A stretch of 64,000 nt of DNA from Candidatus Fraserbacteria bacterium (lineage in GTDB: Bacteria > Bipolaricaulota > Bipolaricaulia > RBG-16-55-9), in contig JBBIPG010000002.1 of assembly GCA_037442925.1 (NCBI GenBank), positions 5,176-69,175 of the forward strand. Direction: 5' to 3'. The position numbers and the translations under genes were made by a program. Below the pieces are notes generated by a model. It did not search any database. It was given only the letters and a program-made list of their open reading frames with translations, and was not told the origin of the DNA. Below are positions 41,199 to 56,232 of the stretch, in pieces. Each line of letters begins with the position of its first letter. The stretch's first letter is position 1.

Positions 41199-41237
41199 CC
41201 TAGCATGGAAAAACCATGATCTAGGCTAGCCCCATGG
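41199..41237. promoter_or_regulatory. Cluster of CTAG/CATGG inverted repeats (CCTAGCATGG-aaaaa-CCATGatCTAGG ... CCATGG) in the divergent promoter between OFOR3/hyp genes and the cooC-acs operon
   Basis: Seen directly in the 138-bp divergent intergenic region. Confidence 0.35.
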
Positions 41238-41290
41238 ATGATCTTCGTCATTTTACATCGCTATACGCAACACATACAATACAGACACGT

Positions 41291-42058
41291 ATGAAGATCG
41301 TTATATCTGGCAAGGGTGGTGTGGGCAAGACAACCGTGTGTGCACTCCTTGCCAAAGAGGCGGCGAGCAAGGGCTATCACGTGCTGGCTGTGGATGCTGA
41401 TCCCAGCCCCACGCTGGCAGCGACCTTGGGAGTCTGTCAGGAACCCACGCCGCTCATCGAGTTCCGCGATCTGATTGAGGAACGCTTAGGCTCACTCGAG
41501 GGGTTCCTCCGGCTCAACCCGAAAGTGGACGACATCCCGGAGCGGTTTGCCATGGAGAAGGACGGAGTCAAGATCCTCGTCATGGGATCGATTCAGCAGG
41601 GTGGAGAAGGATGTGCCTGCCCTCAGAACACGTTCCTAAAGAGCCTCCTACAGCATATAGCTTTCGAGCGGGAGGATTGGGTCTTCATGGATCTGGAGGC
41701 CGGTTTGGAGCCCTTAGGCCGGGCCACCGTGCGTGGCTTCGATGTGCTACTCGTGGTCGTAGAGCCAGATAGCCGCAGTCTCACCACGGCCGGCCGAATC
41801 CACAACTTGGCTCATGACCTGGGGCTAACACACATCTATGCCATAAACAACAAGATTCGGGAAGCGGCGGATGTAGCGTTCGTTGAAGATCGGCTGCCTC
41901 GAGGAGTCACCTTACTCGGTGCCCTGCCCTATAGCGAACCGATTCGCCGAGCTGGCCGTGATGGGTCACTCCATAAGGACCCACTGGTTCAACAAGAAAT
42001 CAGAAGAATCCTGGAGCAGCTGGAAGCTTCACACGGCATGGAGAGAGTTTCAGCCTAG
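41291..42058 (+). CDS. cooC: CooC-type (MinD/ArsA-family) Ni-insertion ATPase for CODH
   Basis: MKIVISGKGGVGKTTV deviant Walker A. 256 aa. Confidence 0.85.
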   Translation: MKIVISGKGGVGKTTVCALLAKEAASKGYHVLAVDADPSPTLAATLGVCQEPTPLIEFRDLIEERLGSLEGFLRLNPKVDDIPERFAMEKDGVKILVMGSIQQGGEGCACPQNTFLKSLLQHIAFEREDWVFMDLEAGLEPLGRATVRGFDVLLVVVEPDSRSLTTAGRIHNLAHDLGLTHIYAINNKIREAADVAFVEDRLPRGVTLLGALPYSEPIRRAGRDGSLHKDPLVQQEIRRILEQLEASHGMERVSA

Positions 42059-42076
42059 CCAAGAAAGGAACGGAAC

Positions 42077-42592
42077 ATGGAGCGACTCTTCTGTGACCCA
42101 CGAAAGTGCGTGGGCTGCCATTCGTGCGAACTGGCCTGCGCGCTGGAGCATACCCCCTCCAAAGATCTATTCCGGGCCGTCCTCACCGGGGAGTCGGGTC
42201 CGCCGCGTCGGCGCGTCCAGACGGTAGGGGACCGGCCCTATCGGGTAGCGATTGGTGGCGTTGTTCTCTCACTGGGCTGCCATCACTGCGATCCTGCCCC
42301 TTGTGTCGATGCGTGCATCGCTGGGGCGATGCATAAAGAAAACGGCGAGACGATCTGCGATCTGGACAAGTGCGTAGGTTGCTGGATGTGCGTGATGAGC
42401 TGCCCGTATGGGGCCATCACGCCTCACGTCAAAGCACTGAAGTGTGATCTCTGCCCCGATCGTCGAGACAAGACCGGGCGATCTCGCTACGCTTGCATCG
42501 AGGCCTGCCCTACGGAGGCCCTCTTTGCCGGGACGTTTGAAGCATTCGAGAAGACCCTATCTCAGCCAATTGTTCAGGGGGTGGCCCGATGA
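42077..42592 (+). CDS. cooF: CooF-like poly-ferredoxin (4 [4Fe-4S] motifs)
   Basis: CVGCHSCELAC, CHHCDPAPC, CVGCWMCVMSCP, CDLCPD...CIEACP. Confidence 0.85.
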   Translation: MERLFCDPRKCVGCHSCELACALEHTPSKDLFRAVLTGESGPPRRRVQTVGDRPYRVAIGGVVLSLGCHHCDPAPCVDACIAGAMHKENGETICDLDKCVGCWMCVMSCPYGAITPHVKALKCDLCPDRRDKTGRSRYACIEACPTEALFAGTFEAFEKTLSQPIVQGVAR

Positions 42593-43917
42593 GATACGTC
42601 ATCATCGGTGCTTCCGCGGCAGGAGTCAGTGCGGCAGAGACGCTGCGAAAGCATGAGCCCGCTGCTGAGATCGTCATGATCTCCGATGAACAACTCATAT
42701 ATTCCAAGCCGCTTCTCTCGTACTACTTGGCCGGGAAGCTAAAGGAAGAGCAACTGCTCTGGCGCGCGCCGGATTTCTTCGAGCGCAACCAGATTGAAGC
42801 GTTGCTGGGAGTCCGCGCCAGCGAATTAGCACCCCAGCAGAGCAAAGTTGTGCTCAAAGATGGCCGCGAGGTTTCGTACGATAGGCTTCTCTTGGCAAAC
42901 GGGGCTTCTCCGAGATTTGCGGCGCTCGAAGGCCGCGAGAAGGCCGGGCTTTTTGGTCTGCGCAAGCTCGAAGATGCGAGGAGCATTTTGGCGCTACTGG
43001 CACGATCCCGGCGGGCGGTCGTGCTCGGCGGGGGCTTAGTCGGTCTTAAGGTCGCGGCGGCTCTCAAAGAGCGGGGTGTTGAAGTGACTGTCTTGGTGGA
43101 TTCGCCTCATGTCCTCTCGCAAATGCTTGACGAGACCTCTGCGCGTATCTTCGAAACAGTGTTCGAGCAGAACGGTGTGCGCATCTTGTGCAAAGCTCGG
43201 CCAGTAGCGCTTACCGGAGGCGAGCGGGTTACCGGTGTCAAGCTAGCATCTGGCGAAGAATACCCGGCAGATCTGGTCGTTGCCGGTAAGGGCGTGGATG
43301 CTAACCTCGATCTGGCCAAAAGTGCTGGCATCGCCTGCGATTATGCGATCTTGGTGGATGAGTATTGCCGCACGAATGTCGAGAATATCTACGCAGCGGG
43401 TGACGTGGCGCAAACGCGCGATGTGCTTCGGGGTGAACCGTGGGTGAACGCGCTCTGGCCCTGTGCCGTCGAGCAAGGGCGCATCGCTGCTCTCAACATG
43501 TTAGGTCAGAAGACGGCGTATCGGGGTTCCATGCGCATGAACAGCGTCCAGTTCTTTGAGTTGCCTGTGATCTCAGCGGGATTGGCTGTCTTGACGCCGG
43601 GCCCGCTGGGAGGGCGATCCGGCGAGCATGACAAGACGATCGAGACGCGACCCGCTCCAGCAGTCTACCGCAAGATCTTCTTAAAAGACGACACCATCGT
43701 GGGGTTCGTCCTCATCGGCGGTGAGCGGGACCTGGAAGCCGCAGGACTGCTGCGCATCTTGATGGAGCGTCGCATGGGGGTCGCAGGAATGGAGGAGGAG
43801 TTACTGGAGATAGGACCGGACCTGGGGCGCTTATTGCCACGGATCGTGCAAGACCGTGAGCGATTCGTCGAGCGAGAATTTCAAGAACTCATCCAAACGG
43901 TGAAGGTGGGGGTGTGA
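42589..43917 (+). CDS. FAD/NAD(P)-dependent pyridine-nucleotide oxidoreductase (CODH-associated, CooF partner)
   Basis: YVIIGASAAGVSAAE FAD Rossmann, second VVLGGGLVGLKVAAAL NAD Rossmann. cooF-FNOR synteny known from CODH gene clusters. Confidence 0.78.
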   Translation: MRYVIIGASAAGVSAAETLRKHEPAAEIVMISDEQLIYSKPLLSYYLAGKLKEEQLLWRAPDFFERNQIEALLGVRASELAPQQSKVVLKDGREVSYDRLLLANGASPRFAALEGREKAGLFGLRKLEDARSILALLARSRRAVVLGGGLVGLKVAAALKERGVEVTVLVDSPHVLSQMLDETSARIFETVFEQNGVRILCKARPVALTGGERVTGVKLASGEEYPADLVVAGKGVDANLDLAKSAGIACDYAILVDEYCRTNVENIYAAGDVAQTRDVLRGEPWVNALWPCAVEQGRIAALNMLGQKTAYRGSMRMNSVQFFELPVISAGLAVLTPGPLGGRSGEHDKTIETRPAPAVYRKIFLKDDTIVGFVLIGGERDLEAAGLLRILMERRMGVAGMEEELLEIGPDLGRLLPRIVQDRERFVEREFQELIQTVKVGV

Positions 43918-43921
43918 CGAT

Positions 43922-46900
43922 ATGTCAAAAATCATCGCGTCGGCGGCCATCCGCGGTGCACAACACTACTTCTCGGAGGCGGAGACCCAACTCAAACAAG
44001 CCATAGCGACCTACAAACCGGAGAAGAAGATCGCCTTTCCCAACACGGCGTATCATTTGCCTCTCATTTTTGCACTCACAGGACTTAAGGTCGAGACTCT
44101 TAAAGACTGTGAAGAAGCATTGAACCATGCCCGCTCTTTGCTTCCGCCATTGCCGGCGGATTCCCTGTGGCTGCCGTATTTGGGTGATGCACTGGATGCG
44201 GGCATTGCCACACTGATCGCGGAAGAGATCATTGAAGCGCTCAAGTATCTCGACCCGAGCTACAAGCCGGATCCGCCGTGGCTGGGCTTCACGGACGACT
44301 CGATCCTGAGAACTCAGGGAATTAAGTTGGTAGATGGGAGGATGCCGGGCTTCGCGGCCTGCGTGGGGGCGCTTCCCACCAATGGAGACGCTGTGGAACT
44401 GATTCGAGCCCTGCAGGAGCGAAGCATTCTTGTCTTCATTGCAGGCAGCTCCAATGGGCGCTCGATGGCCGAGCAATTGAACGAGGAGGGCATCGAGTTG
44501 GGCTGGGACACCTACGTCGTCCCCTATGGCAAGGAGATGAGCGCTGCAGTCTATGCTCTCAATTTCGCCGCTCGTGCGGCCATGACCTTCGGCGGGATCA
44601 AACCCGGCAGCTTTGAAGCGGCAAGAAAAATCTTGCTCTACAACAAAGAGCGCGTCTTTGCGTTTGTGCTCGCACTGGGAGCTGACCCGAACGTCAATGG
44701 GAACGGCCAGCTGCTAACGGACGAGAAATATGCGACGGCTGCGGGTGCGATCAACTTTGGCTTTCCTGTCATTGCCGATGTGAACATTCCTCAGATCCTT
44801 CCCCGAGGCATCTGCACGTATGAGCACGTCGTCTCGGGAGTCTCGCTGGACAAGATCATCCAGAAGGCCGTCGAGGTGCGTGGCCTCAAACTCAAGCTGG
44901 CTCAGATTCCCATTCCGGTGCCCTACGGCGCAGGCTTCGAGGGCGAGCGCGTGCGCAAGGAGAATCTCTATGTCGAGTTCGGAGGCAAGTACAGCACAGC
45001 GTTTGAGCTCCTGCGAGCGCGACCGATGGATGAAGTGGAAGATGGGAAGATCGAACTCATCGGACCCGATTTGGATCAAGCCGAAGAAGGTGGGGCCATG
45101 CCCCTAGCCGTACTGGTCGATGTTGCTGGGCGCAACCTCAAGGCGGACTTTGAGCCCGTGCTGGAGAGAAGAATCCATCACTTCATCAGTTGCATCAATG
45201 GTGTGATGCACATCGGACAGCGAGACATCCCCTGGGTGCGCCTGAGCAAAGAAGCGTACGAGAAAGGCTTTCGCTTGAAGCATTACGGCGAAGTCCTCGT
45301 TGCCAAATTCAAAGACGACTTTGGTGCCATCGTCGACAAAGTGCAGGTGAAGCTCGTGACAGATCAGGCACAAGTCGATCAACTGCTGAAAGAAGCGCGA
45401 GAGATCTACCGACAACGCGACGAGCGCGTCATGGGTATGAAGGACGAAGACGTAGATACCTTCTACAGCTGCATCTTGTGTCAGAGCTACGCGCCCAATC
45501 ACGTCTGCATCGTGACGCCTCAACGCTTGGGCCTTTGTGGTGCGTATACCTGGCTCGACTGCGGCGCGTCCTACGAGATGGACCCGCACGGCCCCAACAA
45601 GCCGGTCACTAAGGGCATCTGTCTCGATCCTGTCTTAGGGGAGTGGCAAGGGGTCAACGAGTACGTGCGCGTTGCCTCCAACGGCAATCTCGAAAGGGTC
45701 TCGATGTACTCGATCATGCAGGACCCCCAAACGTCGTGCGTTGTTGGGGAGACCGAACTGATCATCGACGGCGTTCCCACACCCCTTGGGGAGTTCATCG
45801 AGCAGCACCGGGGGGGCGAGCGCTACAGAGATTCAGCGGCCTTGACGCTGCGCGAAGGCAAAGCCCGCCTGGAGCCGCTGGTAGCTCTGCAGCGCTTCGA
45901 TGCTCCTGAGGAACTGATTCGATTAGAAACGAAGTCCGGTGCTCAGCTGGTCTTGACGAAAGATCACGAGCTGGCAGTCGATCGGCCGGACGGCATGCGA
46001 TGGGTTCGCGCGGACCAAATCAAAGCGGGCGAGCGCCTGATCGCGCTCAAGCACTTGCGTCTGCCGGGACAGCTTCCCGCCGTGGTTGAGCTTTTGCCTA
46101 AGGACTTCCGATCTCGGAGGCAGCTGCCGAAGTCTTTAAGCCCTGAACTCTTCTATCTGCTGGGCTTGATCGCCAGTGACGGCTGCATCACACCGCGCGG
46201 CCGCTATGAGCGCATCATCCATTTCGTCAACACTGATGAAGAGCTTGTCCAGCAATTCACCGGGATTCATAAAGAGCTCTTCCCCGACTGCCATCTGGCG
46301 AGAAAGGTCAAATCGGCCAAGCCGACGACGCTGCGGGGACGCACGATCAAGCCTACTAGGCCCTGCTTCCAGCTTTCTAGCAACAATTCAGTGTTGGGTT
46401 TGCTGGCAGAGCGCTTGGGGCTTCGCGTCGGTAGTCAAGGGCACTGGGAGCTGGGACGGCTGGCGAGCTTACCGGAGGCTCACATCGCAGCCTTCTTGGC
46501 AGGGGTCTTCGACGGCGACGGCAGCGTCCGCTTACGTCAATATGCGGGAAAGTGGGACATTGCTGAGGGGTATGTGTGCATCGCCGACGAGCGGGCCGCG
46601 CGCCATCTGCAGCTCCTGTTGCGGCGGCTGGGCATTATAGGAAACCTCAACAAATCGGGATCGGTCTGGAAGATCGTGATGCACGGGGCGAATCTCCGAA
46701 AGTTCGCTGAGGTCATCCCGGCCAAGCACCCGGAGAAGCAGGCGGTCTTGGCGAGCGTTCGTCAGCTGCCGGGCAACGGCAGGCTCGACAAGACGCAAGA
46801 AGAAGTGCTGCCGTATTATGTGGGGCAGGCCTTGGCCCAGCTGCCCGCCTGCCACGAGGTTCTTAGCCCCAGCACGCTCTATTACTACCAGTCAGGCCGC

Positions 46901-47521
46901 TCGCGACCTGTAGCAGCCAATGTCCAGAAAGTGCTCGAAGCTGCTCCGGAGACTGGGCTGCTACGAGCCGCTCTGGAGACAGACTACTTCCTGGACACCG
47001 TGGTGACAGTGGAGACGGTGAGCAACACTGGGAAAGATCGCTATGAGCGCGTCTATTGCTTGACTCTTGCTGACATCCACTGCTTCTTCGCCAACACCAT
47101 CCTGATCAAGAACTGCGGGTGCTTCGAGTGCATCGTTGCTGTGTTGCCTGAGACCAACGGGGTGATGGTCGCCAGCCGCGAATATCAGGGTGAGACGCCC
47201 ATCGGCATGACCTTCTCGACGATGGCCGGCGAGGTCGGCGGCGGGGTGCAGACGCCGGGCTTTTTGGGCGTGGGCAAGCTCTATCTGACGAGCGAAAAAT
47301 TTATCAGCGCTGAGGGCGGGATCAGGAGATTAGTGTGGATGCCTAGCGAGCTTAAAGAAGAGATCAAAGAGAGACTCCAAAAGCGCTTGGAGGAGATCGG
47401 GATGCCCGAACTCTTCGACAAGATCGCCACTGAAAAAGACGCCACGACGACGGACGAGTTGATGGCATTCTTGCAGAAAGTGGGACACCCGGTGCTCGAG
47501 ATGGAAGCGATCATCGCCTAA
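43922..47521 (+). CDS. acsB: Acetyl-CoA synthase (CODH/ACS beta subunit AcsB), intein-containing precursor (740-aa extein + 459-aa intein)
   Basis: N-terminal AcsB-like region (KIAFPNTAYHLPLIFALTG ... AEEIIEALKYL). A-cluster motif SIMQDPQTS|CGCFEC interrupted by the insert. Extein length matches canonical AcsB. Confidence 0.88.
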   Translation: MSKIIASAAIRGAQHYFSEAETQLKQAIATYKPEKKIAFPNTAYHLPLIFALTGLKVETLKDCEEALNHARSLLPPLPADSLWLPYLGDALDAGIATLIAEEIIEALKYLDPSYKPDPPWLGFTDDSILRTQGIKLVDGRMPGFAACVGALPTNGDAVELIRALQERSILVFIAGSSNGRSMAEQLNEEGIELGWDTYVVPYGKEMSAAVYALNFAARAAMTFGGIKPGSFEAARKILLYNKERVFAFVLALGADPNVNGNGQLLTDEKYATAAGAINFGFPVIADVNIPQILPRGICTYEHVVSGVSLDKIIQKAVEVRGLKLKLAQIPIPVPYGAGFEGERVRKENLYVEFGGKYSTAFELLRARPMDEVEDGKIELIGPDLDQAEEGGAMPLAVLVDVAGRNLKADFEPVLERRIHHFISCINGVMHIGQRDIPWVRLSKEAYEKGFRLKHYGEVLVAKFKDDFGAIVDKVQVKLVTDQAQVDQLLKEAREIYRQRDERVMGMKDEDVDTFYSCILCQSYAPNHVCIVTPQRLGLCGAYTWLDCGASYEMDPHGPNKPVTKGICLDPVLGEWQGVNEYVRVASNGNLERVSMYSIMQDPQTSCVVGETELIIDGVPTPLGEFIEQHRGGERYRDSAALTLREGKARLEPLVALQRFDAPEELIRLETKSGAQLVLTKDHELAVDRPDGMRWVRADQIKAGERLIALKHLRLPGQLPAVVELLPKDFRSRRQLPKSLSPELFYLLGLIASDGCITPRGRYERIIHFVNTDEELVQQFTGIHKELFPDCHLARKVKSAKPTTLRGRTIKPTRPCFQLSSNNSVLGLLAERLGLRVGSQGHWELGRLASLPEAHIAAFLAGVFDGDGSVRLRQYAGKWDIAEGYVCIADERAARHLQLLLRRLGIIGNLNKSGSVWKIVMHGANLRKFAEVIPAKHPEKQAVLASVRQLPGNGRLDKTQEEVLPYYVGQALAQLPACHEVLSPSTLYYYQSGRSRPVAANVQKVLEAAPETGLLRAALETDYFLDTVVTVETVSNTGKDRYERVYCLTLADIHCFFANTILIKNCGCFECIVAVLPETNGVMVASREYQGETPIGMTFSTMAGEVGGGVQTPGFLGVGKLYLTSEKFISAEGGIRRLVWMPSELKEEIKERLQKRLEEIGMPELFDKIATEKDATTTDELMAFLQKVGHPVLEMEAIIA
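45737..47113 (+). mobile_element. Intein (Hint domain + LAGLIDADG homing-endonuclease) inserted in acsB; Cys1 ... terminal Asn, +1 Cys
   Basis: Block A CVVGETELIIDG. Block B LTKDHELAV (T-x-x-H). LAGLIDADG motifs LLGLIASDGCI and FLAGVFDGDGSV. C-terminal ...FFANTILIKN followed by extein CGC. Confidence 0.8.
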
Positions 47522-47529
47522 AGGAGCTT

Positions 47530-48870
47530 GTGATGGCCAAACTCACGGGAATAGAGATCTATAAACACCTGCCCAAGACTAACTGTGGTGACTGTAATTT
47601 CCCTACGTGTATGGCCTTCGCCATGCAAGTGGCCGCCAAGAAAGTGGGTCTCGAGCAGTGCCCACATGTCTCAGCCGAGGCGAAAGCGGCCCTTTCCGAA
47701 GCCCAAGCCCCACCGATGCGTGTGGTCACGATCGGGGCGGGAGATCGTGCGCTCAAAGTCGGCGGCGAGACGGTGTTGTTCCGACACGACGAGAAATTCC
47801 ATCGCCCGACGGTCATTGCCATTCGCGTGCGGGATGATCTGCCGGAAGCGGAGCTGGCTCAGCGTATCGAGAAGATCAATCAGATCCAGTTCGTGCGCGT
47901 CGGACAGAAGATCGCCGTCAATGCCATCGCCGTCGAGCAAACGAACAGTGGGAAGTTTGTGCCCTCCGTGAAGCTTGTCAGCGAAAGATCCCCACTCGTG
48001 CTCATCTTGATCAGCTCTGATCCTCGGGCTCTCACGGCTGCTCTTGAGATCTGTGCGGATCGACGCCCATTGATCCACGCGGCGACAAAAGAGAACTGTA
48101 AAGAACTGGCAGCGCTGGCAAAGCAGTTCAACTGCCCGTTGGCCGTCCGTGCCACATCTCTTGAAGAGCTGGCTGAACTTACTCACGAGATGAAAGCCTC
48201 AGGCGTCGAGGATCTCGTCCTGGACCCGAACGTACAGGGAATGGCTGAGGGACTGACCAAACTGACACAACTCCGTCGTCTGGCCCTAGAGAAGACGTTT
48301 AGACCCTTAGGATTTCCCACCATGACGATCGTTCCTGGCAGTGACCCGTTCATGGATACGGCTCAGGCGGCGGCGTACATCTGCAAGTACGCCAGCATCA
48401 TCGTGATGGATGGCTGCGAACGCTGGCAGCTGTTGCCCATTTTGACAGCGCGCCAGAACATCTACACCGACCCGCAAGTGCCCAACGCTGTCGAGGCCAA
48501 GCTCTACAAAGTGGGCGAGCCAGGATCTCAATCACCCGTACTGGTTACCACAAACTTCGCGCTCACCTACTTCACCGTCGAAGGCGAAGTGGAGAACAGC
48601 CGCGTCCCGGCCTACATCGCCGTGGTGGATACCGGGGGATTGGGTGTGCTCAATGCCTACGCAGACGACAAGCTCACAGCGGAGGGAATCGTCAAGACCG
48701 TCAAGGCCTCTGGAATCATGGATCAAGTTTCCCATAAGAAACTCGTCATCCCCGGATTAGTCGCCGTGCTCAAGGGCGAGATCGAGGACGAAGGAGGCTG
48801 GGAAGTGTTAGTTGGTCCGGAGGAAGCAGCGGGCTTGCCCGCCTACTTGCGAAACGATTGGAAAGCGTAA
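47530..48870 (+). CDS. acsC: Corrinoid iron-sulfur protein large subunit (AcsC/CdhE)
   Basis: N-terminal [4Fe-4S] motif KTNCGDCNFPTCMAFAM. 446 aa. Confidence 0.9.
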   Translation: MMAKLTGIEIYKHLPKTNCGDCNFPTCMAFAMQVAAKKVGLEQCPHVSAEAKAALSEAQAPPMRVVTIGAGDRALKVGGETVLFRHDEKFHRPTVIAIRVRDDLPEAELAQRIEKINQIQFVRVGQKIAVNAIAVEQTNSGKFVPSVKLVSERSPLVLILISSDPRALTAALEICADRRPLIHAATKENCKELAALAKQFNCPLAVRATSLEELAELTHEMKASGVEDLVLDPNVQGMAEGLTKLTQLRRLALEKTFRPLGFPTMTIVPGSDPFMDTAQAAAYICKYASIIVMDGCERWQLLPILTARQNIYTDPQVPNAVEAKLYKVGEPGSQSPVLVTTNFALTYFTVEGEVENSRVPAYIAVVDTGGLGVLNAYADDKLTAEGIVKTVKASGIMDQVSHKKLVIPGLVAVLKGEIEDEGGWEVLVGPEEAAGLPAYLRNDWKA

Positions 48871-48886
48871 AGGCAGGGGACTCGAG

Positions 48887-50797
48887 ATGCCCAAAGTCGT
48901 CTTTCACCCAGATGACGTGAGCGTCGAAGTCGAGCGCGGGGTGACGCTGCAAGCCGCCGCGAAGGCAGCCGGTGTTGAGCTGGCCAGCATCTGCGGCGGG
49001 GATGGCATCTGCGGTCGCTGCCGAGTGATCGTGCGAGACGGCAACATCCAGGCTTCTCCCACTACCTTGCTCAGCCGCGACGAGATCCAAAGAGGGTATG
49101 TACTCGCGTGCCAGACGAAGATCACCGGAGACGTCGAAATCGAAGTGCCCCCAGAAACACGCACGGAAGAGGGGCAGATTCTCATCGACATCGACGCCCA
49201 ACGCTTCCGGGCCCTCTATCAGGAGGAGAAGATCTCTTTTCGGCATGAGCCCTTGGTGCAAAAGCTCTACGCGGAGTTGCCTCGGCCCACGCTGCAAGAT
49301 AATCTGGCGGACCACCAGCGGCTCTACCGCGAAATCCGCCGCCACAAGAACTACCAGATCATGCAGACGGGCCTCAAGGTCTTACAGACTCATCCCAAGC
49401 TCTTTCGCACGAGTCGCTGGAAGATCACGGCTACCCTGGGTATGCGCGGCGGGACCATCGAAGTGCTCCAAGTCGAGGGCGGCAATACCGCAGAGCGCAA
49501 CTACGGCATCGCCGTGGACGTGGGAACTTCCACCGTCGTCGCTCACTTGCTCGATCTGAATACGGGCAAGACGGTGGATGCCGAAGCCATGTACAACTCA
49601 CAGCGTGCGTACGGCGAAGAAGTGACACGGCGCATCATCTATGCAGAACGCGGCGGACTGGACCAGCTGCAAAAGACAGTCGTCAACGATATCAACAACT
49701 TGATCACGGCACTTGTGGCGCGCAACCAGATTGCACAACACGACTGTCTCACGGTTCTTTGCGCCGGCAACACGACGATGATGCATCTCGTATTGGGTCT
49801 GGACCCCACCTACATCCGCCGCGATCCCTACGTTTCCTGTTCGACGGCGCCTCCGCCGGTGCGAGCGGCCGAAGTGGGAATTCAGATCAACCCTCGCGGG
49901 CTTCTGTACTGCCTGCCGGCCATCGGGGGCTGGGTGGGCGGAGATGTGACTGGTGGGATTCTGGCGACGGGACTTCACGAGTCGGATGAGACCGTGATGC
50001 TGATCGATGTCGGCACCAACGGAGAGATCGTCATCGGCAATAGAGAGTGGATGGTGGCCTGTTCGGCCTCCGCCGGTCCGGCCTTTGAGGGCTCGGGAGT
50101 GCAGTGCGGCATGAAAGCAAGCCGCGGCGCGATTGAGCGCGTACAGATCTCATCGGACGGAAACGTGCTCTATAAGAGTGTGGGCAACGTCAAACCCAAA
50201 GGCATCTGTGGCTCGGGGCTCATCGATCTGGTCGCGGCGCTTTTCACAGCTGATCTCATTGATCGGTCCGGAGCGCTGCAGCCGGAAGCCAGCCCCAGAG
50301 TCCGTGAGCGCAACGGCTTGCTCGAGTTCGTTGTCGTTCCCACCCAGCGCTCTGGCACCGGCAAGGATATCGTCATCACTCAAGCCGACATCGAGAATCT
50401 ACTGAGTGCCAAAGCCGCCATCTACGCCGGGGCACACATCTTAATCAAATCGCTCGATCTCGACTTCAACGATATCGAAAGAGTCTTTTTAGCCGGAGGC
50501 TTCGGGAACTATCTGGACCGCGAGAAGGCGATCACGATTGGCCTGATTCCCGATCTACCCCTGGAAAAGATTCGATTTGTCGGTAACACGTCCATCATCG
50601 GGGCCAAACTGGCGCTGCTCTCTCAAGAAGCGTTCGAGCGCAGCTACGAGATCGCGAGGAACGTGACGTATTATGATCTCATTAGCTTTCCGCACTATTA
50701 CGAGGAGTTTCTCGCGGCGAAATTCCTGCCGCATACGGAGCTGGAACGTTTTCCATCTGTGCAGGAGAGACTGAAATCAAAAGCGAGGATCTTCTAG
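48887..50797 (+). CDS. Reductive activator of CoFeSP (RACo/AcsV): N-terminal [2Fe-2S] ferredoxin + ASKHA ATPase
   Basis: CGGDGICGRCRV plant-type ferredoxin motif. About 636 aa. Start ATG 48887 with SD. Confidence 0.8.
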   Translation: MPKVVFHPDDVSVEVERGVTLQAAAKAAGVELASICGGDGICGRCRVIVRDGNIQASPTTLLSRDEIQRGYVLACQTKITGDVEIEVPPETRTEEGQILIDIDAQRFRALYQEEKISFRHEPLVQKLYAELPRPTLQDNLADHQRLYREIRRHKNYQIMQTGLKVLQTHPKLFRTSRWKITATLGMRGGTIEVLQVEGGNTAERNYGIAVDVGTSTVVAHLLDLNTGKTVDAEAMYNSQRAYGEEVTRRIIYAERGGLDQLQKTVVNDINNLITALVARNQIAQHDCLTVLCAGNTTMMHLVLGLDPTYIRRDPYVSCSTAPPPVRAAEVGIQINPRGLLYCLPAIGGWVGGDVTGGILATGLHESDETVMLIDVGTNGEIVIGNREWMVACSASAGPAFEGSGVQCGMKASRGAIERVQISSDGNVLYKSVGNVKPKGICGSGLIDLVAALFTADLIDRSGALQPEASPRVRERNGLLEFVVVPTQRSGTGKDIVITQADIENLLSAKAAIYAGAHILIKSLDLDFNDIERVFLAGGFGNYLDREKAITIGLIPDLPLEKIRFVGNTSIIGAKLALLSQEAFERSYEIARNVTYYDLISFPHYYEEFLAAKFLPHTELERFPSVQERLKSKARIF

Positions 50798-51580
50798 ATG
50801 GCTTTCACCATTGGGGTTGCCGGTAAAGGCGGCGTGGGGAAGACGACCCTGGCAGGTTTGATCGCACGATTGCTGTTGGAGCGCGGCGATGGGCCCGTTT
50901 TGGCGATTGACGCCGATCCCAACACCAACTTTCATCAAGTTCTGGGGCTCCACGTGGAACAGACCATCGGCGAACTGCGCGAAGAGACTCTCAAGAAAAT
51001 AAAAGACTTACCAGCTGGCATCTCCAAGGATCAGTATCTCGAGTACGGCCTGCACCAGTGTCTCGTCGAGGACAATGGCATCGATCTATTGGCCATGGGA
51101 CGAGGCGAGGGTCCCTTCTGCTACTGTGCCGTCAACCACGTACTGCGACGCTACATGGATCTTCTGGCCAAGAACTACAAGTACATCGTCATGGACAACG
51201 AGGCTGGCCTGGAACATCTCTCACGACGAACCACACAAGATGTTGATGTCTTGCTCATAGTGAGCGAATGCTTTCCCGTGGCACTTCAGGCTGCCGCCAG
51301 AATCAGCAAGATCGCCGATGAACTCAAATTACGCATCGGTCAGAGATTCCTCGTGCTAAACCATGTGAACGACGGAACCCTGTCTGGGCCGGCCCAGGAA
51401 GCTCTACAAGAGAGCATTGGGCAGGCGGGGCTCATGCTCATCGGGGAGATCCCCCGCGATGAGGCGATTCGGCGCCTCAGCGTGGAAGGCAAACCGCTGA
51501 GCGAACTACCCGCCTCCTCGCCGGCCAAGTCAGCCGTGAAGGCGATTCTTGAAAGAGTGCTGGAGAAAGGAGGCCCCTGA
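50798..51580 (+). CDS. acsF: AcsF/CooC-type Ni-insertion ATPase (second copy)
   Basis: MAFTIGVAGKGGVGKTT Walker A. CxC motif GPFCYCAV. Confidence 0.85.
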   Translation: MAFTIGVAGKGGVGKTTLAGLIARLLLERGDGPVLAIDADPNTNFHQVLGLHVEQTIGELREETLKKIKDLPAGISKDQYLEYGLHQCLVEDNGIDLLAMGRGEGPFCYCAVNHVLRRYMDLLAKNYKYIVMDNEAGLEHLSRRTTQDVDVLLIVSECFPVALQAAARISKIADELKLRIGQRFLVLNHVNDGTLSGPAQEALQESIGQAGLMLIGEIPRDEAIRRLSVEGKPLSELPASSPAKSAVKAILERVLEKGGP

Positions 51581-52560
51581 TGCCGGTAGCCATTCCCGAT
51601 GTGAAGAAGACTTGGACGAACGCGATCAACGTGGTGACACTGGGGGCCACGCGCGAAGAGGGGGGGACCCGCACGTCGAAGGTGACGGTAGGCGGCGCGA
51701 CTTCGCTCTCCTTCCATCATTTTGAGGGCACGATGCCCCACCCACCTGCGATCGCCATGGAGGTCTGGGATATTGCCCCCACCGACTGGCCCCAGATTCT
51801 GACAGAACCCTTCGCGGATGTGCTGAACGACCCCGGGCTCTGGGCCAAAAAGTGCGTCGAGCAGTACGGTGCCGAGTTGATCTGTCTGCGTCTTATGGGG
51901 TGTGATCCCATTCGTGGCAATCGCGGCCCTCAAGAGGCCGTGCCAGCGGTGAAGCGAGTACTCGCGTCCGTGGGTGTGCCACTCATCATTTGGGGTACGG
52001 GCAACGATGAGAAAGATAATGAGATCTTCCCCGCTGTGGCGGAAGCCGCAGCGGGTGAGAATTGCTTATTAGGCACGATCACGGAAGACAACTACAAGAC
52101 GCTCGTTGCCGTCTGCACGGCGTACAAACATAAGCTGATCGCCGAGTCGCCTTGTGATGTCAACATTGCGAAGCAAGTGAACATCCTTGCCACAGATATG
52201 GGCTTCAAGCCGGAAGACATAGTGATCTATCCCACGAGCGCGGCATTGGGCTATGGACTCGAATACGTCTATTCCATCATGGAGCGGGCCAGGCTCGCGG
52301 CGTTACGCGGCGACAAGATGCTCTCGCAACCCATGATCTGTGATATTGGCATTGAGACATGGGGCGTGAAAGAAGCCAAGGCAAGTGAGCAAGAACTGCC
52401 CGAATGGGGTGAGCAGAAGGAGCGCGCGCCGCTGTGGGAAGCGACAACGGCATACATCTATTTGCTGACGGGGGCAGATCTTCTTGTGCTGCGCCATCCA
52501 CGGGCTGTCGCCAGCGTGCGGCAAGCGATCCAGCAACTCATGGGAGCCGGAGGCGGTTAG
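51580..52560 (+). CDS. acsD: Corrinoid iron-sulfur protein small subunit (AcsD/CdhD)
   Basis: TIM-barrel CFeSP small-subunit-like sequence. 326 aa. Context between acsF and acsE. Confidence 0.85.
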   Translation: MPVAIPDVKKTWTNAINVVTLGATREEGGTRTSKVTVGGATSLSFHHFEGTMPHPPAIAMEVWDIAPTDWPQILTEPFADVLNDPGLWAKKCVEQYGAELICLRLMGCDPIRGNRGPQEAVPAVKRVLASVGVPLIIWGTGNDEKDNEIFPAVAEAAAGENCLLGTITEDNYKTLVAVCTAYKHKLIAESPCDVNIAKQVNILATDMGFKPEDIVIYPTSAALGYGLEYVYSIMERARLAALRGDKMLSQPMICDIGIETWGVKEAKASEQELPEWGEQKERAPLWEATTAYIYLLTGADLLVLRHPRAVASVRQAIQQLMGAGGG

Positions 52561-52561
52561 C

Positions 52562-53365
52562 ATGATCCTCATTGGCGAGCGAATCAACGGCTCTTTCAAA
52601 GACGTCGGGGCTGCCATCAAAGAGAGGAACAAAGAACCCATTCAAGACTGGGCAAAGAAGCAGACCGAAGCGGGAGCGGATTATCTCGATGTCAACTTGG
52701 GCGCGGTATCGAAGAATCCCGCTGACTTCGCCTGGCTCATTCAGACCGTTTGTGAAGCTGTGCCCACGCCGCTTTCGATCGATTCGCTCAAGCTCGATCT
52801 GGTGCGCGCGGGACTGGAAGCTTATAGAGAATTCGGAGGCAGGCGACCTGTCATTATCAACAGCACGACCGCCGAAGAGAGCAAACTGATGCCGTTAGTC
52901 GAGTTGGCGGTTCAGTACAACTCAGGTCTCATTGGCGTCGTGATGGATGAGCGTGGCAGCCCGCAAGATATTGACCGACGAGTTGAGCTGGGAGCGAAGA
53001 TCTTTGCCATCGCGAGCGAAGCGGGTCTACCTCCGGAACGAGTCTATCTCGACCCCATCGTCATGCCGGTCAAGTTTATGCAAGAGCAGGGCAAGAACGT
53101 CCTAGAAGCCATAAGGCAGTTCGCGATGATCTCCGACCCTCCGCCGCATATCTCTATCGGGCTCAGTAATATCTGCTCCAAAGCCCAAGAACGCTCGCTC
53201 ATCACTCGGACGTTTCTCGTCATGGCCATGGCGGCTGGCTGCGATGCCGCAATCTGCAATGTGATGGACGCGGAACTCGTAAACGCTGTAGCCACAGCGG
53301 AGTTGATTCTCAACAAAGAAATATACAGCGACAGCTACTTGAAGGCATATCGAAAGCGGGGCTGA
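52562..53365 (+). CDS. acsE: Methyltetrahydrofolate:corrinoid iron-sulfur protein methyltransferase (AcsE/MeTr, pterin-binding)
   Basis: MILIGERINGSFKDV N-terminus typical of MeTr. 267 aa. Confidence 0.85.
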   Translation: MILIGERINGSFKDVGAAIKERNKEPIQDWAKKQTEAGADYLDVNLGAVSKNPADFAWLIQTVCEAVPTPLSIDSLKLDLVRAGLEAYREFGGRRPVIINSTTAEESKLMPLVELAVQYNSGLIGVVMDERGSPQDIDRRVELGAKIFAIASEAGLPPERVYLDPIVMPVKFMQEQGKNVLEAIRQFAMISDPPPHISIGLSNICSKAQERSLITRTFLVMAMAAGCDAAICNVMDAELVNAVATAELILNKEIYSDSYLKAYRKRG

Positions 53366-53366
53366 A

Positions 53367-54266
53367 ATGAGACTTACAGGTGTACATCTGCTCCTGACGT
53401 ACGAGTGCAATCTCGAGTGCGATCATTGCTTCGTCTGGGGCAGTCCCTGGCAACGTGGCACGATGACTCTCAAGACCATCCGTGAGATCCTACAGCAAGC
53501 TAAGGATCTTGGAACGGTAGAGTGGATCTACTTTGAGGGTGGCGAACCCTTTCTCTACTACGCCACTCTGCTCAAAGGGGTGCAAGTGGCTGCACGCCTG
53601 GGCTTTCAAGTGGGGATCGTATCGAATGGCTACTGGGCCACCGATGCGCAAGATGCTCTAGAGTGGCTAAGACCCTTCGCGGGTCTTGTGCAAGACTTAT
53701 CGATCAGTAGCGACCTCTATCACTGGAAGGAGAGCCTCAGCCAGCAAGCCAAGCACATCTGCTCCGCGGCGGGAAAGCTAGACATCCCCATGCAAATCCT
53801 CCACATCGCGGCACCCGAAGTCGCGGATGCCCCATCCGCGGTGGGACAACTTCCGCCGGGTACGTCGAAGGTCATGTATCGTGGGCGTGCGGCAGAGAAG
53901 TTGGCAAACAAGACTCCACGCCGACCTTGGACAGAGTTCACGGCTTGTACGCATGAGGACCTCCGTGAGCCAGGGCGGGTACACATCGACCCCTTTGGGA
54001 ATGTCCACATCTGCCAGGGGATCGCGCTGGGTAACGTCTACCAAACACCGCTGAGGAGCATGTGCAGGAAGTACGATCCGGATACTCACCCGATTGCCGG
54101 TCCGTTGCTTTCGGGCGGTCCCGCAGAGCTTGTGCGCCGCTACAAGCTGGCTCACGAAGCACGATGTGCCGATTCATGCCATCTGTGCTATGAGGCCCGT
54201 CGGGCTCTGCGCAGTCGCTTTCCGGATGTCCTAAAACCGGATCAGATGTATGGAGTGGTGCCGTGA
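53367..54266 (+). CDS. Radical SAM protein of unknown function embedded in the acs operon (CxxxCxxC + C-terminal Cys-rich auxiliary region)
   Basis: LTYECNLECDHCF radical-SAM motif. C-terminal CTHE...HICQG...CRKY...CADSCHLC. 2-nt gap after acsE. Confidence 0.7.
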   Translation: MRLTGVHLLLTYECNLECDHCFVWGSPWQRGTMTLKTIREILQQAKDLGTVEWIYFEGGEPFLYYATLLKGVQVAARLGFQVGIVSNGYWATDAQDALEWLRPFAGLVQDLSISSDLYHWKESLSQQAKHICSAAGKLDIPMQILHIAAPEVADAPSAVGQLPPGTSKVMYRGRAAEKLANKTPRRPWTEFTACTHEDLREPGRVHIDPFGNVHICQGIALGNVYQTPLRSMCRKYDPDTHPIAGPLLSGGPAELVRRYKLAHEARCADSCHLCYEARRALRSRFPDVLKPDQMYGVVP

Positions 54267-54324
54267 ACGTGCTAGGTACAGCAGTCGAAAGACTCGCGTT
54301 GACCATCTTGGGGAAGGGGGAGTC

Positions 54325-56232
54325 ATGAAAGAAAAAAGCGTAGATCGAGCCTCACAAGAGATGCTCGAGCACGCAAAGCAAGAGCATCTGGAGACAGCTT
54401 GGGATCGCTGGGAACTTCAACAACCCCAGTGCGGCTTCGGACAACTGGGTTTATGTTGCCGGATCTGCAATATGGGTCCGTGTCGCATTGACCCGTTTGG
54501 GAGCGGACCCAAGCGCGGCGTATGTGGTGCTGACGCCGATACGTTCGTTGCTCGCCATCTAACCCGCATGATCGCTGCCGGGACGGCAGCGCACTCGGAC
54601 CACGGGCGCGATGTGGCACATACGCTGCTGCTGGCTGCGGAGGGCCATCGCGGCTATCGCATCAAAGATCCACGGAAGCTGCGTAAAGTCGCTGCCGAGT
54701 TTGGCATTGGGGCAGACACGAAGAGCGATGCAGAGATTGCCAAGGCGTTGGCAGAAAAGGCGTTGGCGGAGTTCGGCCAACAAGAGGGAGAACTGACACT
54801 AACTCGACGTGCTCCCAAGGCGCGGCAAGAGCTCTGGCGCAAGCTAGGAATCATGCCGCGCGGGATCGACCGCGAAGTCGTGGAGATGATGCACCGCACG
54901 ACGATGGGGGTAGACACAGATTATAAGAACATCTTGCTCCAAGGCATGAGGACATCGTTGGCTGATGGCTGGGGTGGCTCGATGCTCGCCACAGACATTC
55001 AAGACATTCTCTTTGGGACTCCAATGCCTCTACGTTCCCGCGTGAATCTGGGAGTGCTAAAGAAGGACGAGGTCAACGTCGTCGTTCATGGCCACGAACC
55101 CATCTTGTCAGAGATGCTCGTGGTAGCCAGCCGTGACCCAGAGCTGGTGAAGTTAGCTCAGCAAAAGGGCGCTCGCGGAATCAATATCACCGGCATCTGC
55201 TGCACGGCCAATGAGATTCTCATGCGCCACGGCATCCCGATTGCAGGCAACTTCTTGCAGCAGGAGCTGGCACTGGCCACGGGAGCCGTGGATGCCATGA
55301 TTGTGGACGTGCAATGTGTCATGCCCGCTCTGGCGAGTCTCGCTCAGTGCTTCCACACAAAGCTCATTGCCACCTCACCCAAGGCGAAATTCCCCAATAC
55401 AGACTTTGTGGAGTTCCGCGAGGAACGCGCCATTGAGGCAGCGAAAGAGATCATCCAGCGCGCGATAGAGAACTACCCGAATCGCGAGCCGCGTCGCATG
55501 CAGATCCCGGATGCCTCGATGGATCTGATCGCTGGCTTCACTTCTGAGTCTGTATTTCGATTCTTAGGCGGACGCTATCGAGCTACCTACCGGCCGCTTA
55601 ACGATGCCATCATGGACGGGAGGCTCCGCGGAGCCGTCGGCGTCGTCGGCTGCAACAACCCCAATATCACCCATGACTGGGGGCACCTGACGCTCACCAA
55701 AGAACTCCTGAAGAACGATGTACTAGTCGTGTCAAGTGGCTGCTCAGCCATCGCGGATGCCAAGTTCGGCCTGCTTAGGCCGGAGGCGGCCCACAATTAC
55801 GCCGGACCCGGCTTGCGTGAGATCTGCGAGACGGTAGGCATACCGCCGGTGCTCCACGTGGGAGCCTGCGTGGATAACTCACGCATCTTGACGACGCTGA
55901 TTGAGATCGTGGGTGAGGGTGGCTTAGGAGACGACTTCGCGAAACTGCCTGTGGCGGGATCTGCACCTGAGTGGATGAGCGAAAAGGCCGTGGCCATCGG
56001 GTTCTATTTCGTCGCTTCCGGAGCTCTGGTGCACTTTGGGACACCCCAGCCGATCTACGGCAGCAAGAACGTGACAGAGTTCTTGACGAAAGATGTCGAG
56101 ACGCTTGTGGGTGGCAAGTTCGCCTTCGAGCCTGATCCACAAAAGGCGGCCAAACTGATCCTCGAGCATCTAGATCGCAAGCGGGCCGACTTGAAGCTTC
56201 GAGAACCGATGTATACTCCTGTGTACGCGTAG
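54325..56232 (+). CDS. cooS: Ni-dependent CO dehydrogenase catalytic subunit (CooS/AcsA)
   Basis: QCGFGQLGLCCRICNMGPCRI D-cluster/B-cluster motif. 635 aa. ATG 54325 with strong SD. Confidence 0.92.
   Translation: MKEKSVDRASQEMLEHAKQEHLETAWDRWELQQPQCGFGQLGLCCRICNMGPCRIDPFGSGPKRGVCGADADTFVARHLTRMIAAGTAAHSDHGRDVAHTLLLAAEGHRGYRIKDPRKLRKVAAEFGIGADTKSDAEIAKALAEKALAEFGQQEGELTLTRRAPKARQELWRKLGIMPRGIDREVVEMMHRTTMGVDTDYKNILLQGMRTSLADGWGGSMLATDIQDILFGTPMPLRSRVNLGVLKKDEVNVVVHGHEPILSEMLVVASRDPELVKLAQQKGARGINITGICCTANEILMRHGIPIAGNFLQQELALATGAVDAMIVDVQCVMPALASLAQCFHTKLIATSPKAKFPNTDFVEFREERAIEAAKEIIQRAIENYPNREPRRMQIPDASMDLIAGFTSESVFRFLGGRYRATYRPLNDAIMDGRLRGAVGVVGCNNPNITHDWGHLTLTKELLKNDVLVVSSGCSAIADAKFGLLRPEAAHNYAGPGLREICETVGIPPVLHVGACVDNSRILTTLIEIVGEGGLGDDFAKLPVAGSAPEWMSEKAVAIGFYFVASGALVHFGTPQPIYGSKNVTEFLTKDVETLVGGKFAFEPDPQKAAKLILEHLDRKRADLKLREPMYTPVYA

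Follow-up and report, generated by a model that had tools for sequence, protein, structure and literature searches.

Among inteins of known structure, the closest counterparts of the element described here are TliVMA (7qss), PI-PkoII (2cw7), PI-PfuI (1dq3), and PI-SceI (1vde), in which a Hint splicing domain is split by a two-motif LAGLIDADG endonuclease. The hosts of these archaeal and yeast inteins are ATPase, polymerase, and ribonucleotide reductase. In a 64,000-nucleotide stretch of DNA from a Candidatus Fraserbacteria bacterium (hereafter called the window), we find the same architecture in a metabolic Ni-Fe-S enzyme, the CO-methylating acetyl-CoA synthase (ACS) encoded by acsB. The element is an insert placed directly before the Cys-Gly-Cys motif of the A-cluster. 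It shares only 12-19% identity with the solved inteins, and differs from them in having Lys for the penultimate His, Asn or Cys for the Asp at position 4 of block F (F:4), and an added helical module (intein residues 346-415). An earlier note, made from the sequence of the window, had proposed an intein at exactly this place, and the profile searches, the alignment to the 1OAO structure, the AlphaFold2 model, and the Foldseek comparison all support it. The insert is a genuine class 1 bifunctional intein, composed of a Hint splicing domain and a nested LAGLIDADG homing endonuclease.

The acsB open reading frame (ORF) encodes a precursor of 1199 amino acids, which confirms the excess of about 460 codons estimated in the note. 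The insert accounts for 459 residues (precursor residues 606-1064) and is flanked by ...SIMQDPQTS upstream and CGCFECIV... downstream. Its stop-free frame begins with CVVGETELIIDG and ends with ANTILIKN; the initial Cys, the T-x-x-H block, and the two LAGLIDADG motifs that the note had read from the translation are all present, at the coordinates given in Table 1. When the insert is removed, the remaining 740 residues, the same length as the intein-free relatives, align end to end with the ACS of Moorella thermoacetica (1OAO, E 2.5e-212; 1MJG). The alignment passes through the junction without a gap, and the contiguous extein at Cys-Gly-Cys is thus restored as had been predicted. The AcsB family model NF040764 (CODH_ACS_al_bet) scores 1017.6 bits against a cut-off of 800. 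The predicted masses are 132.6 kDa for the precursor, 81.4 kDa for the spliced AcsB, and 51.2 kDa for the free intein.

The position of the insert relative to the A-cluster follows from residue numbers counted along the 1OAO alignment. The insertion point Ser605/Cys606 corresponds to S594↓C595-G596-C597 of the Moorella enzyme (the arrow marks a splice junction here and below), and C517, C520, C529, and C539 of the N-extein correspond to C506, C509, C518, and C528. All of the A-cluster ligand positions (Cys506, 509, 518, 528, 595, and 597, and Gly596, Moorella numbering) are kept. In the established structure of ACS, C595, G596, and C597 are ligands of both nickel ions, and C509 forms the bridge from the [4Fe-4S] cubane to the proximal Ni. 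The putative +1 splicing nucleophile, the equivalent of C595, is accordingly the first metal-ligand Cys of the motif, as the note had claimed. In the ligated protein, the junction lies in a span from Arg to Arg without internal Lys or Arg, ...DPQTSCGCFECIVAVLPETNGVMVASR, and the tryptic peptide across DPQTS-CGCFEC would be long, with the C-terminal end ...VAVLPETNGVMVASR. Two structures of C-terminal ACS fragments, 3s2x and 5gol (137 and 135 residues), begin one residue ahead of the insertion point, with their residue 1 aligned to S605 (query 605-740 versus chain 1-137). This start suggests that the C-extein folds as a module of its own, with the intein located at a subdomain boundary.

Similarity to Hint domains, on which the intein assignment depends, was found by profile and structure searches alike, with signals well beyond what chance would give. 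Two stretches of the insert match the Pfam family LAGLIDADG_3 (PF14528, E 4e-18), and the NCBIfam model TIGR01445 (intein_Nterm) matches intein residues 1-80 with 29.4 bits against a cut-off of 24.5. Further matches of the insert are to the intein segments of the NCBIfam models for intein-containing DnaB, RFC, PolII, RNA polymerase A'', IF-2, V-ATPase, and Tes, and a sequence search of the PDB retrieved the VMA, RadA, and PI-PkoII inteins. The AlphaFold2 model, built with 35 homologues as input, has a pLDDT of 93.7 and a pTM of 0.93. The best Foldseek matches of this model in the PDB were exclusively endonuclease-bearing inteins (E 1e-21 to 1e-9, TM 0.46-0.77), with TliVMA at the top (E 1.4e-21, TM 0.72/0.77), followed by PI-PkoII, PI-PfuI, and PI-SceI. 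Next came LAGLIDADG enzymes that stand alone, I-DmoI and I-SceI among them. In the model, the two ends of the insert, N-terminal and C-terminal, form the Hint fold, and between them lies a core with the features of a two-motif, monomeric LAGLIDADG endonuclease of alpha-beta-beta-alpha-beta-beta-alpha fold: the duplicated PF14528 match, the acidic residues D148, D259, and D261, and the fold matches to I-DmoI and I-SceI.

In order to place the insert within a family, the precursor was searched against a collection of 5.8 billion proteins. The search returned dozens of AcsB proteins with Hint and LAGLIDADG domains (1170-1310 residues), together with longer forms of 1700-1840 residues. It also returned many 740-residue AcsB proteins without an intein, up to 97% identical to the window exteins; the intein-less alleles that the note had advised looking for therefore exist in related genomes, and the interpretation of the insert as an ordinary conserved AcsB domain is ruled out. 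We mapped 67 inteins to exactly the same insertion point, hereafter site b (...P-x-T-[S/A]↓C...N↓CGCFE). Cys1, T74, H77, V439, Y440, N459, and Cys+1 are invariant in all 67, and the acidic residues D148, D259, and D261 are kept in 65-66 of them. At F:4, Asn is present in 61 and Cys in the other six, including the window intein (VYCLTL), and the usual Asp is absent; at F:13, 47 members have His and 20 have Asn. The penultimate residue (G:6) is Lys in 57, Ala in six, Gln in two, and His and Glu in one each. The note had singled out the penultimate Lys as atypical. Lys indeed stands in place of His, but this is no oddity of the window copy, since the great majority of the family shares it.

Class 1 inteins are defined by a C-terminal Asn and by Cys, Ser, or Thr at position 1 of the intein as well as of the C-extein, while His G:6, F:4 (Asp, then Cys, then Trp), and F:13 are assisting, less conserved residues, and inteins without His G:6 exist (PMC4031507). 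Judged by its sequence, the window intein has the defining class 1 features and departs from the norm at two assisting positions. The missing F:4 Asp and G:6 His lower its canonicity, not its membership, because these positions are rated as less conserved and variants at them still splice (PMC4031507). The Cys at F:4 in the window intein and its closest relatives recalls the class 3 inteins, in which this Cys is obligate (PMC4031507). However, class 3 inteins lack Cys1 or Ser1; with Cys1 invariant and Cys at F:4 in so few members of the AcsB family, a class 3 intein is ruled out.

Could the insert be an artefact of assembly, or an RNA intron? The intein-free allele of a relative (L001) is collinear with the window, with 92-93% nucleotide identity on either side. 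The alignment breaks cleanly at 45733/47110, with exactly 1377 nt missing, and the empty site reads ...GACCCGCAAACGAGC↓TGCGGCTGCTTCGAG... (also written ...ATGACGGACCCGCAAACGAGC↓TGCGGCTGCTTCGAGTGTCTG...). One might consider a contig that is misassembled or chimeric, or else a self-splicing RNA intron with a LAGLIDADG ORF, on the grounds that the data are metagenomic, that group I introns also hold such ORFs, and that the acsB of one close assembly contains a mosaic patch (described below) that could be an assembly chimera. Against these possibilities, the insert is in frame, free of stop codons, a multiple of three in length, and bounded by Hint blocks A and G. The GC content at its third codon positions (0.72) is within the host range (0.69-0.79), and its overall GC content likewise matches that of acsB. 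Across the whole window, no Rfam family was matched, group I and II introns included, which rules out the RNA intron. The same insertion is seen again in independently made assemblies that span many samples and phyla; one of these (L002, near-identical to the window) carries an intein with 99.6% amino acid identity to that of the window. A misassembly, which the note had named as a possible refutation, is thereby ruled out, and we regard an artefact of either kind as practically out of the question.

Presence and absence of the intein vary even among very close relatives. AcsB proteins with exteins that are 87-100% identical show every state: no intein (P0019 and others), an intein at site b only (the window, P0003), an intein only at a second site, designated site a (P0020), and inteins at both sites (P0002). 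In P0012 (1437 residues), an intein at site a is combined with a natural mini-intein of 151 residues at site b. A precise deletion has removed its endonuclease and helical modules, and just the Hint parts and the KN↓C junction are kept. The mini-intein therefore marks the boundaries of the splicing domain.

The sequences that flank the intein carry a further trace of its history. The extein tracts on the two sides (Table 1) are together only 76.6% identical to L001, as compared to 93.7% over the other 8 kb (binomial p = 3e-31). At the protein level, P0019 is the closest relative of the window in the N-extein (94-99%) and among the more distant ones in the C-extein (87%). Such divergence is the pattern expected for the entry or exit of an intein by recombination with co-conversion of the flanks. 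The intein is also under purifying selection: as compared to the intein of L003, which is 81% identical, the ratio of nonsynonymous to synonymous substitution rates (dN/dS) is 0.11 over the whole intein, 0.10 within its endonuclease core, and 0.04-0.10 in the exteins, although these values are approximate, with dS near saturation. Taken together, the purifying selection, the clean 1377-nt polymorphism, and the diverged flanks point to an element that is both maintained and mobile.

Based on these findings, we propose the following course of events. The 132.6-kDa precursor would be translated first, and Cys1 would form a thioester at the N-terminal junction. The Cys+1 thiol (the Cys595 equivalent) would then attack this thioester in a transesterification, yielding a branched intermediate. 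Cyclization of Asn459 would set the 51-kDa intein free, and a final S-to-N shift would restore the peptide bond in ...PQTS-CGCFEC.... The A-cluster would be assembled only after splicing, because the insert parts Ser594 from Cys595-Gly596-Cys597 and the Cys595 thiol itself is the putative splicing nucleophile. Acting on this highly conserved site, the liberated endonuclease would cut acsB alleles that lack the intein, and recombinational repair would copy the intein into them. Such homing would explain both the patchy presence in close relatives and the spread over many phyla. We infer the splicing of the precursor from the selection on it and the conservation of the family. The splicing competence, the endonuclease activity, and the order of splicing before metal insertion are likewise predictions, and the dependence of ACS activity on splicing is soundly expected from the position of the insert.

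We consider it very probable, overall, that acsB carries a bifunctional intein that restores Cys-Gly-Cys by class 1 splicing and homes into intein-free alleles. Several observations weigh against this proposal. Two splicing-domain profiles fall narrowly short of their cut-offs, namely the Pfam model Intein_splicing (PF14890; 35.1 versus 35.8) and TIGR01443 (intein_Cterm; 15.3 versus 15.6), and the site-b family lacks two of the residues that usually assist, Asp at F:4 and His at G:6. All of the carriers are metagenome-assembled genomes, and both splicing and endonuclease activity are putative. The diverged flanks could equally mean that the lineage of L001 lost the intein by recombining with a foreign intein-free allele. 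Moreover, the divergence of the intein follows that of the exteins across carriers (Spearman 0.73). Much of the distribution thus reflects long vertical residence and not frequent homing, with an endonuclease that is conserved yet possibly idle at present. Because intein divergence tracks extein divergence, we regard the intein as a long-standing occupant of AcsB that is sporadically gained and lost, and not as the product of a recent epidemic.

The missing assisting residues and the profile shortfalls would also fit an intein that has lost the ability to splice, either leaving acsB inactive and in effect a pseudogene, or persisting as a permanent domain of 459 residues. We judge this very unlikely. 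The nucleophiles and the block B residues are invariant throughout the 67 inteins, the exteins and the intein are both under strong purifying selection, and at least 45 species keep an unbroken frame. That the whole family conserves the unusual residues is the reverse of what random decay would leave. Furthermore, the gene is the sole acsB of a complete operon, and a retained 51-kDa insert would part Cys595-Gly596-Cys597 from the A-cluster pocket. The established structure of ACS makes a functional unspliced enzyme implausible.

The second insertion point, site a, lies within the N-extein. Thirteen of the retrieved AcsB proteins carry an intein there (...FYSC[I/T]L↓C...[K/R/Q]N↓CQS[Y/F]APNH), and its +1 Cys corresponds to Cys509 of the Moorella enzyme; both AcsB intein sites directly precede an A-cluster ligand cysteine. 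The junction ends in KN↓C in 11 of the 13. In P0002, which carries both, the site-a and site-b inteins are 31% identical, and each ends in KN↓C. Site a is empty in the window. In L002 (GCA_037444325.1; L002:4001-9226), where the surrounding 11.5 kb are otherwise 99-100% identical to the window, it is filled by an intein of 544 residues (1632 nt) with Hint and LAGLIDADG domains. In the same L002 gene, identity to the window drops to 71-85% over a patch of the N-extein of about 1.2-1.4 kb (window 43800-45000). Here the window resembles the intein-free L001 (91-97%), and the foreign segment is therefore the one in L002. The patch ends about 480 nt upstream of the site-a intein, and it may represent a discontinuous conversion tract tied to the acquisition of that intein, or else an assembly chimera.

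In a search of representative sequences, the nearest relatives outside AcsB (27-33% identity) include inteins of other anaerobic redox enzymes (P0146, P0150, P0148, P0142, P0147; L056-L060). Their hosts are large subunits of the [NiFe]-hydrogenase or complex-I 49-kDa type (ERICGI↓C...N↓C(G/S)xxH), a NuoB-like small subunit (LDCGS↓C...N↓CNGC), and an HdrA-like protein with Fer4 and Pyr_redox domains (TLDCSI↓C...). These hydrogenase-, NuoB-, and HdrA-type inteins end with ...N↓C, each directly before a Cys of a metal-binding motif. In the thiamine pyrophosphate enzyme P0147, the intein also directly precedes a Cys (...RFLYI↓C...SN↓CYDNE). The TruB/Cbf5 pseudouridine synthases are other close hosts. 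The hydrogenase-, NuoB-, and HdrA-type inteins are metagenomic sequences and differ from the AcsB intein in host and insertion site; a limited literature search found no description of hydrogenase inteins.

Does the placement at metal ligands serve the host? The closest precedent is the MoaA intein of Pyrococcus abyssi, in which a disulfide forms a “redox trap” in an O2-sensitive enzyme; in addition, Zn and Cu inhibit inteins via active-site residues (PMC10663303). The AcsB intein resembles the MoaA intein in residing in an O2-sensitive metalloenzyme of an anaerobe, and in having Cys residues at or near the splice junction that could form a disulfide. The two are different, unrelated alleles, and while redox control has been demonstrated for the MoaA intein, it is speculation for the AcsB intein. 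Only in the AcsB intein is the +1 residue itself a ligand of a catalytic metal cluster.

By analogy, the AcsB intein might be domesticated, with its splicing gated by redox state or metal. This possibility, to which we assign a small share of the probability, elaborates on the proposed splicing and homing and does not exclude them. A disulfide between Cys1 and Cys+1 (or one that involves the adjacent Cys residues of Cys-Gly-Cys) under oxidizing conditions, or Ni or Zn bound to the Cys-Gly-Cys at +1 to +3, would halt splicing, and the intein would form a checkpoint that withholds the O2-labile ACS or places splicing before nickel insertion. In a broader form, which we likewise find rather improbable, the inteins at site a (Cys509) and site b (Cys595) are both conditional-splicing checkpoints of A-cluster biogenesis, and not merely parasites. 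It is equally doubtful, in our estimate, that the reason lies in the +1 Cys having to bind Ni, such that premature metal or a disulfide among Cys1, Cys+1, and Cys+3 would block splicing. If true, the checkpoint would tie the O2-labile, nickel-costly ACS to reducing conditions and to its CooC/AcsF-like ATPase maturation machinery.

Gated splicing is favored by the +1 nucleophile being a metal ligand, by the further Cys residues at +3 and +6 beside the splice site, and by the extra Cys residues that the window clade has at F:4 and at intein position 449. The MoaA and Zn/Cu precedents and the related inteins at metal-ligand Cys residues of other anaerobic redox enzymes point in the same direction, and the long residence, as seen in the divergence tracking, and the purifying selection are compatible with a retained function. 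On the other hand, invariant catalytic sites are also expected for purely selfish inteins, for which they offer a stable homing target and make imprecise loss lethal. Very close relatives (97% identity) are intein-free, and the host thus does well without it; the conserved endonuclease speaks for the lifestyle of a mobile element. We therefore prefer the ordinary bifunctional, homing intein.

How widely is this intein distributed? In a scan of one genome per GTDB species, about 50 loci showed at least 35% identity to the intein, and at least 45 had an open frame and the identical junction. The site-b carriers come from roughly nine phyla. They include Bipolaricaulota/Acetothermia, Fraserbacteria, Chloroflexota (Anaerolineae, Caldilineaceae, Ardenticatenaceae, and Thermoflexus), and Aerophobetes, as well as Omnitrophota, Actinomycetota, Planctomycetia, Poribacteria, and Clostridia. 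The nearest named relatives of both the exteins and the intein belong to Candidatus Bipolaricaulota/Acetothermia.

According to the note, inteins are not known to have been described in the carbon monoxide dehydrogenase (CODH)/ACS complex. We found no description among about 8 million open full-text papers and preprints, a search that left the subscription literature largely outside, nor is AcsB mentioned in the main text of the intein-host census of 2016 (PMC4760082). Dedicated NCBIfam models exist for intein-containing RtcB and Tes, and none for AcsB turned up in the profile search of the precursor. An exact look-up of the window protein in a contig index gave no entry. The element is, however, abundant in public databases under automatic names. 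Intein-bearing AcsB proteins are called “acetyl-CoA synthase”, “intein/homing endonuclease”, or “LAGLIDADG family homing endonuclease”, the last being the label of the NCBI pipeline for P0010, P0018, P0058, P0076, P0083, P0087, P0108, P0122, P0125, and P0129, and some of the gene calls are split into fragments. The acsB gene may consequently be overlooked when carbon fixation is scored in metagenome-assembled genomes, for example those of Chloroflexota, Omnitrophota, Aerophobetes, and Bipolaricaulota.

Apparently new are the host protein, the insertion at two cluster-ligand Cys residues, and the Lys-Asn end that the family shares together with Asn or Cys at F:4. As to its kind, the element is a bifunctional class 1 intein of the ordinary sort; its mechanism is conventional, and it already occurs widely in public sequence data. 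The Wood-Ljungdahl pathway thereby has its central enzyme among the intein hosts, with both insertion sites at ligands of the Ni-Ni-[4Fe-4S] A-cluster (the Cys595 and Cys509 equivalents). It is a very clean case of inteins targeting the most constrained residues of their hosts, and the related inteins do likewise in hydrogenase-type and Fe-S enzymes. The maturation of ACS in the carriers would gain an obligatory step, with splicing ahead of metal insertion. The locus provides a natural system for the interplay of splicing with Ni and Fe-S assembly, redox state, and metal inhibition, and inteins with Cys1, Cys+1, and a Lys-Asn end, together with the 151-residue mini-intein, may be of use in protein engineering.

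Table 1. Features of the acsB locus in the window (positions counted from the first nucleotide of the window; aa, amino acids).
Feature	Position	Strand	Basis or remark
acs (Wood-Ljungdahl) gene cluster	41234..56232	+	
acsB precursor gene (CO-methylating acetyl-CoA synthase, one intein)	43922..47521	+	1199 codons plus stop
N-extein, aa 1-605, last residues ...MQDPQTS	43922..45736	+	[4Fe-4S] ligand Cys C517, C520, C529, C539 inside
Site a, empty second intein site, L519↓C520 (Moorella Cys509 position)	45476..45481	+	occupied in L002
Upstream extein tract, candidate co-conversion	45600..45736	+	70-86% identity to L001, background 93.7%
Intein, 459 aa, allele “AcsB site b”	45737..47113	+	profiles, PDB matches, AlphaFold2 model, family conservation
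Hint splicing domain, N-terminal part (intein aa 1 to ~110)	45737..46066	+	TIGR01445 match; beta-rich model; limits of mini-intein P0012
Cys1	45737-45739	+	invariant in 67/67
Block B, T74-K-D-H77	45956-45967	+	T74 and H77 invariant in 67/67
LAGLIDADG endonuclease core (intein aa ~132-345)	46130..46771	+	two PF14528 matches, acidic residues, Foldseek
LAGLIDADG motif 1, FYLLGLIASDGC	46151-46186	+	
LAGLIDADG motif 2, AAFLAGVFDGDGS	46487-46525	+	
Helical module, from core to C-terminal Hint strands (intein aa 346-415)	46772..46981	+	secondary structure of model; family-conserved; dN/dS 0.105
Hint domain, C-terminal part (intein aa 416-459), blocks F and G VYCLTLADIHCFFANTILIKN, terminal Asn459	46982..47113	+	TIGR01443 near cut-off
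C-extein, 135 aa plus stop, first residues C-G-C (47114-47122)	47114..47521	+	corresponds to Moorella C595-G596-C597
Downstream extein tract, candidate co-conversion	47114..47420	+	68-82% identity to L001

The helical module that leads from the endonuclease core to the C-terminal Hint strands may have an accessory role in DNA binding. Most family members (521-533 residues) have a further helical segment of about 68 residues (consensus DFRVxDxxL...YGSL...LGxDW...) between the N-terminal Hint part and the endonuclease. It is absent from the window intein (window ~46110-46130, intein residues 125 to 132) and from its closest relatives (439-464 residues).

The acs cluster is complete. It encodes, in order, a CooC-like ATPase, a ferredoxin, an FAD oxidoreductase, AcsB, AcsC, the corrinoid activase RACo, a second CooC/AcsF-like ATPase, AcsD, an AcsE-like pterin-binding protein, a radical-SAM protein, and CODH. 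Neither another intein nor a second acsB was found among the six-frame ORFs of the window, using a hidden Markov model of the family and phmmer with the spliced AcsB. The RACo ORF (48812-50797, + strand) begins with a TTG codon and shares 59 nt with the end of acsC. Since the RACo homologues in L002 and L003 have 636-643 residues, translation probably starts some 20 codons downstream of the TTG. A long molybdopterin ORF (5876-9634, - strand) was considered as another carrier of an insertion and rejected; it encodes a normal full-length NarG (TIGR01580, 1335 bits). This alpha subunit of a respiratory nitrate reductase lies about 35 kb from the Wood-Ljungdahl cluster.

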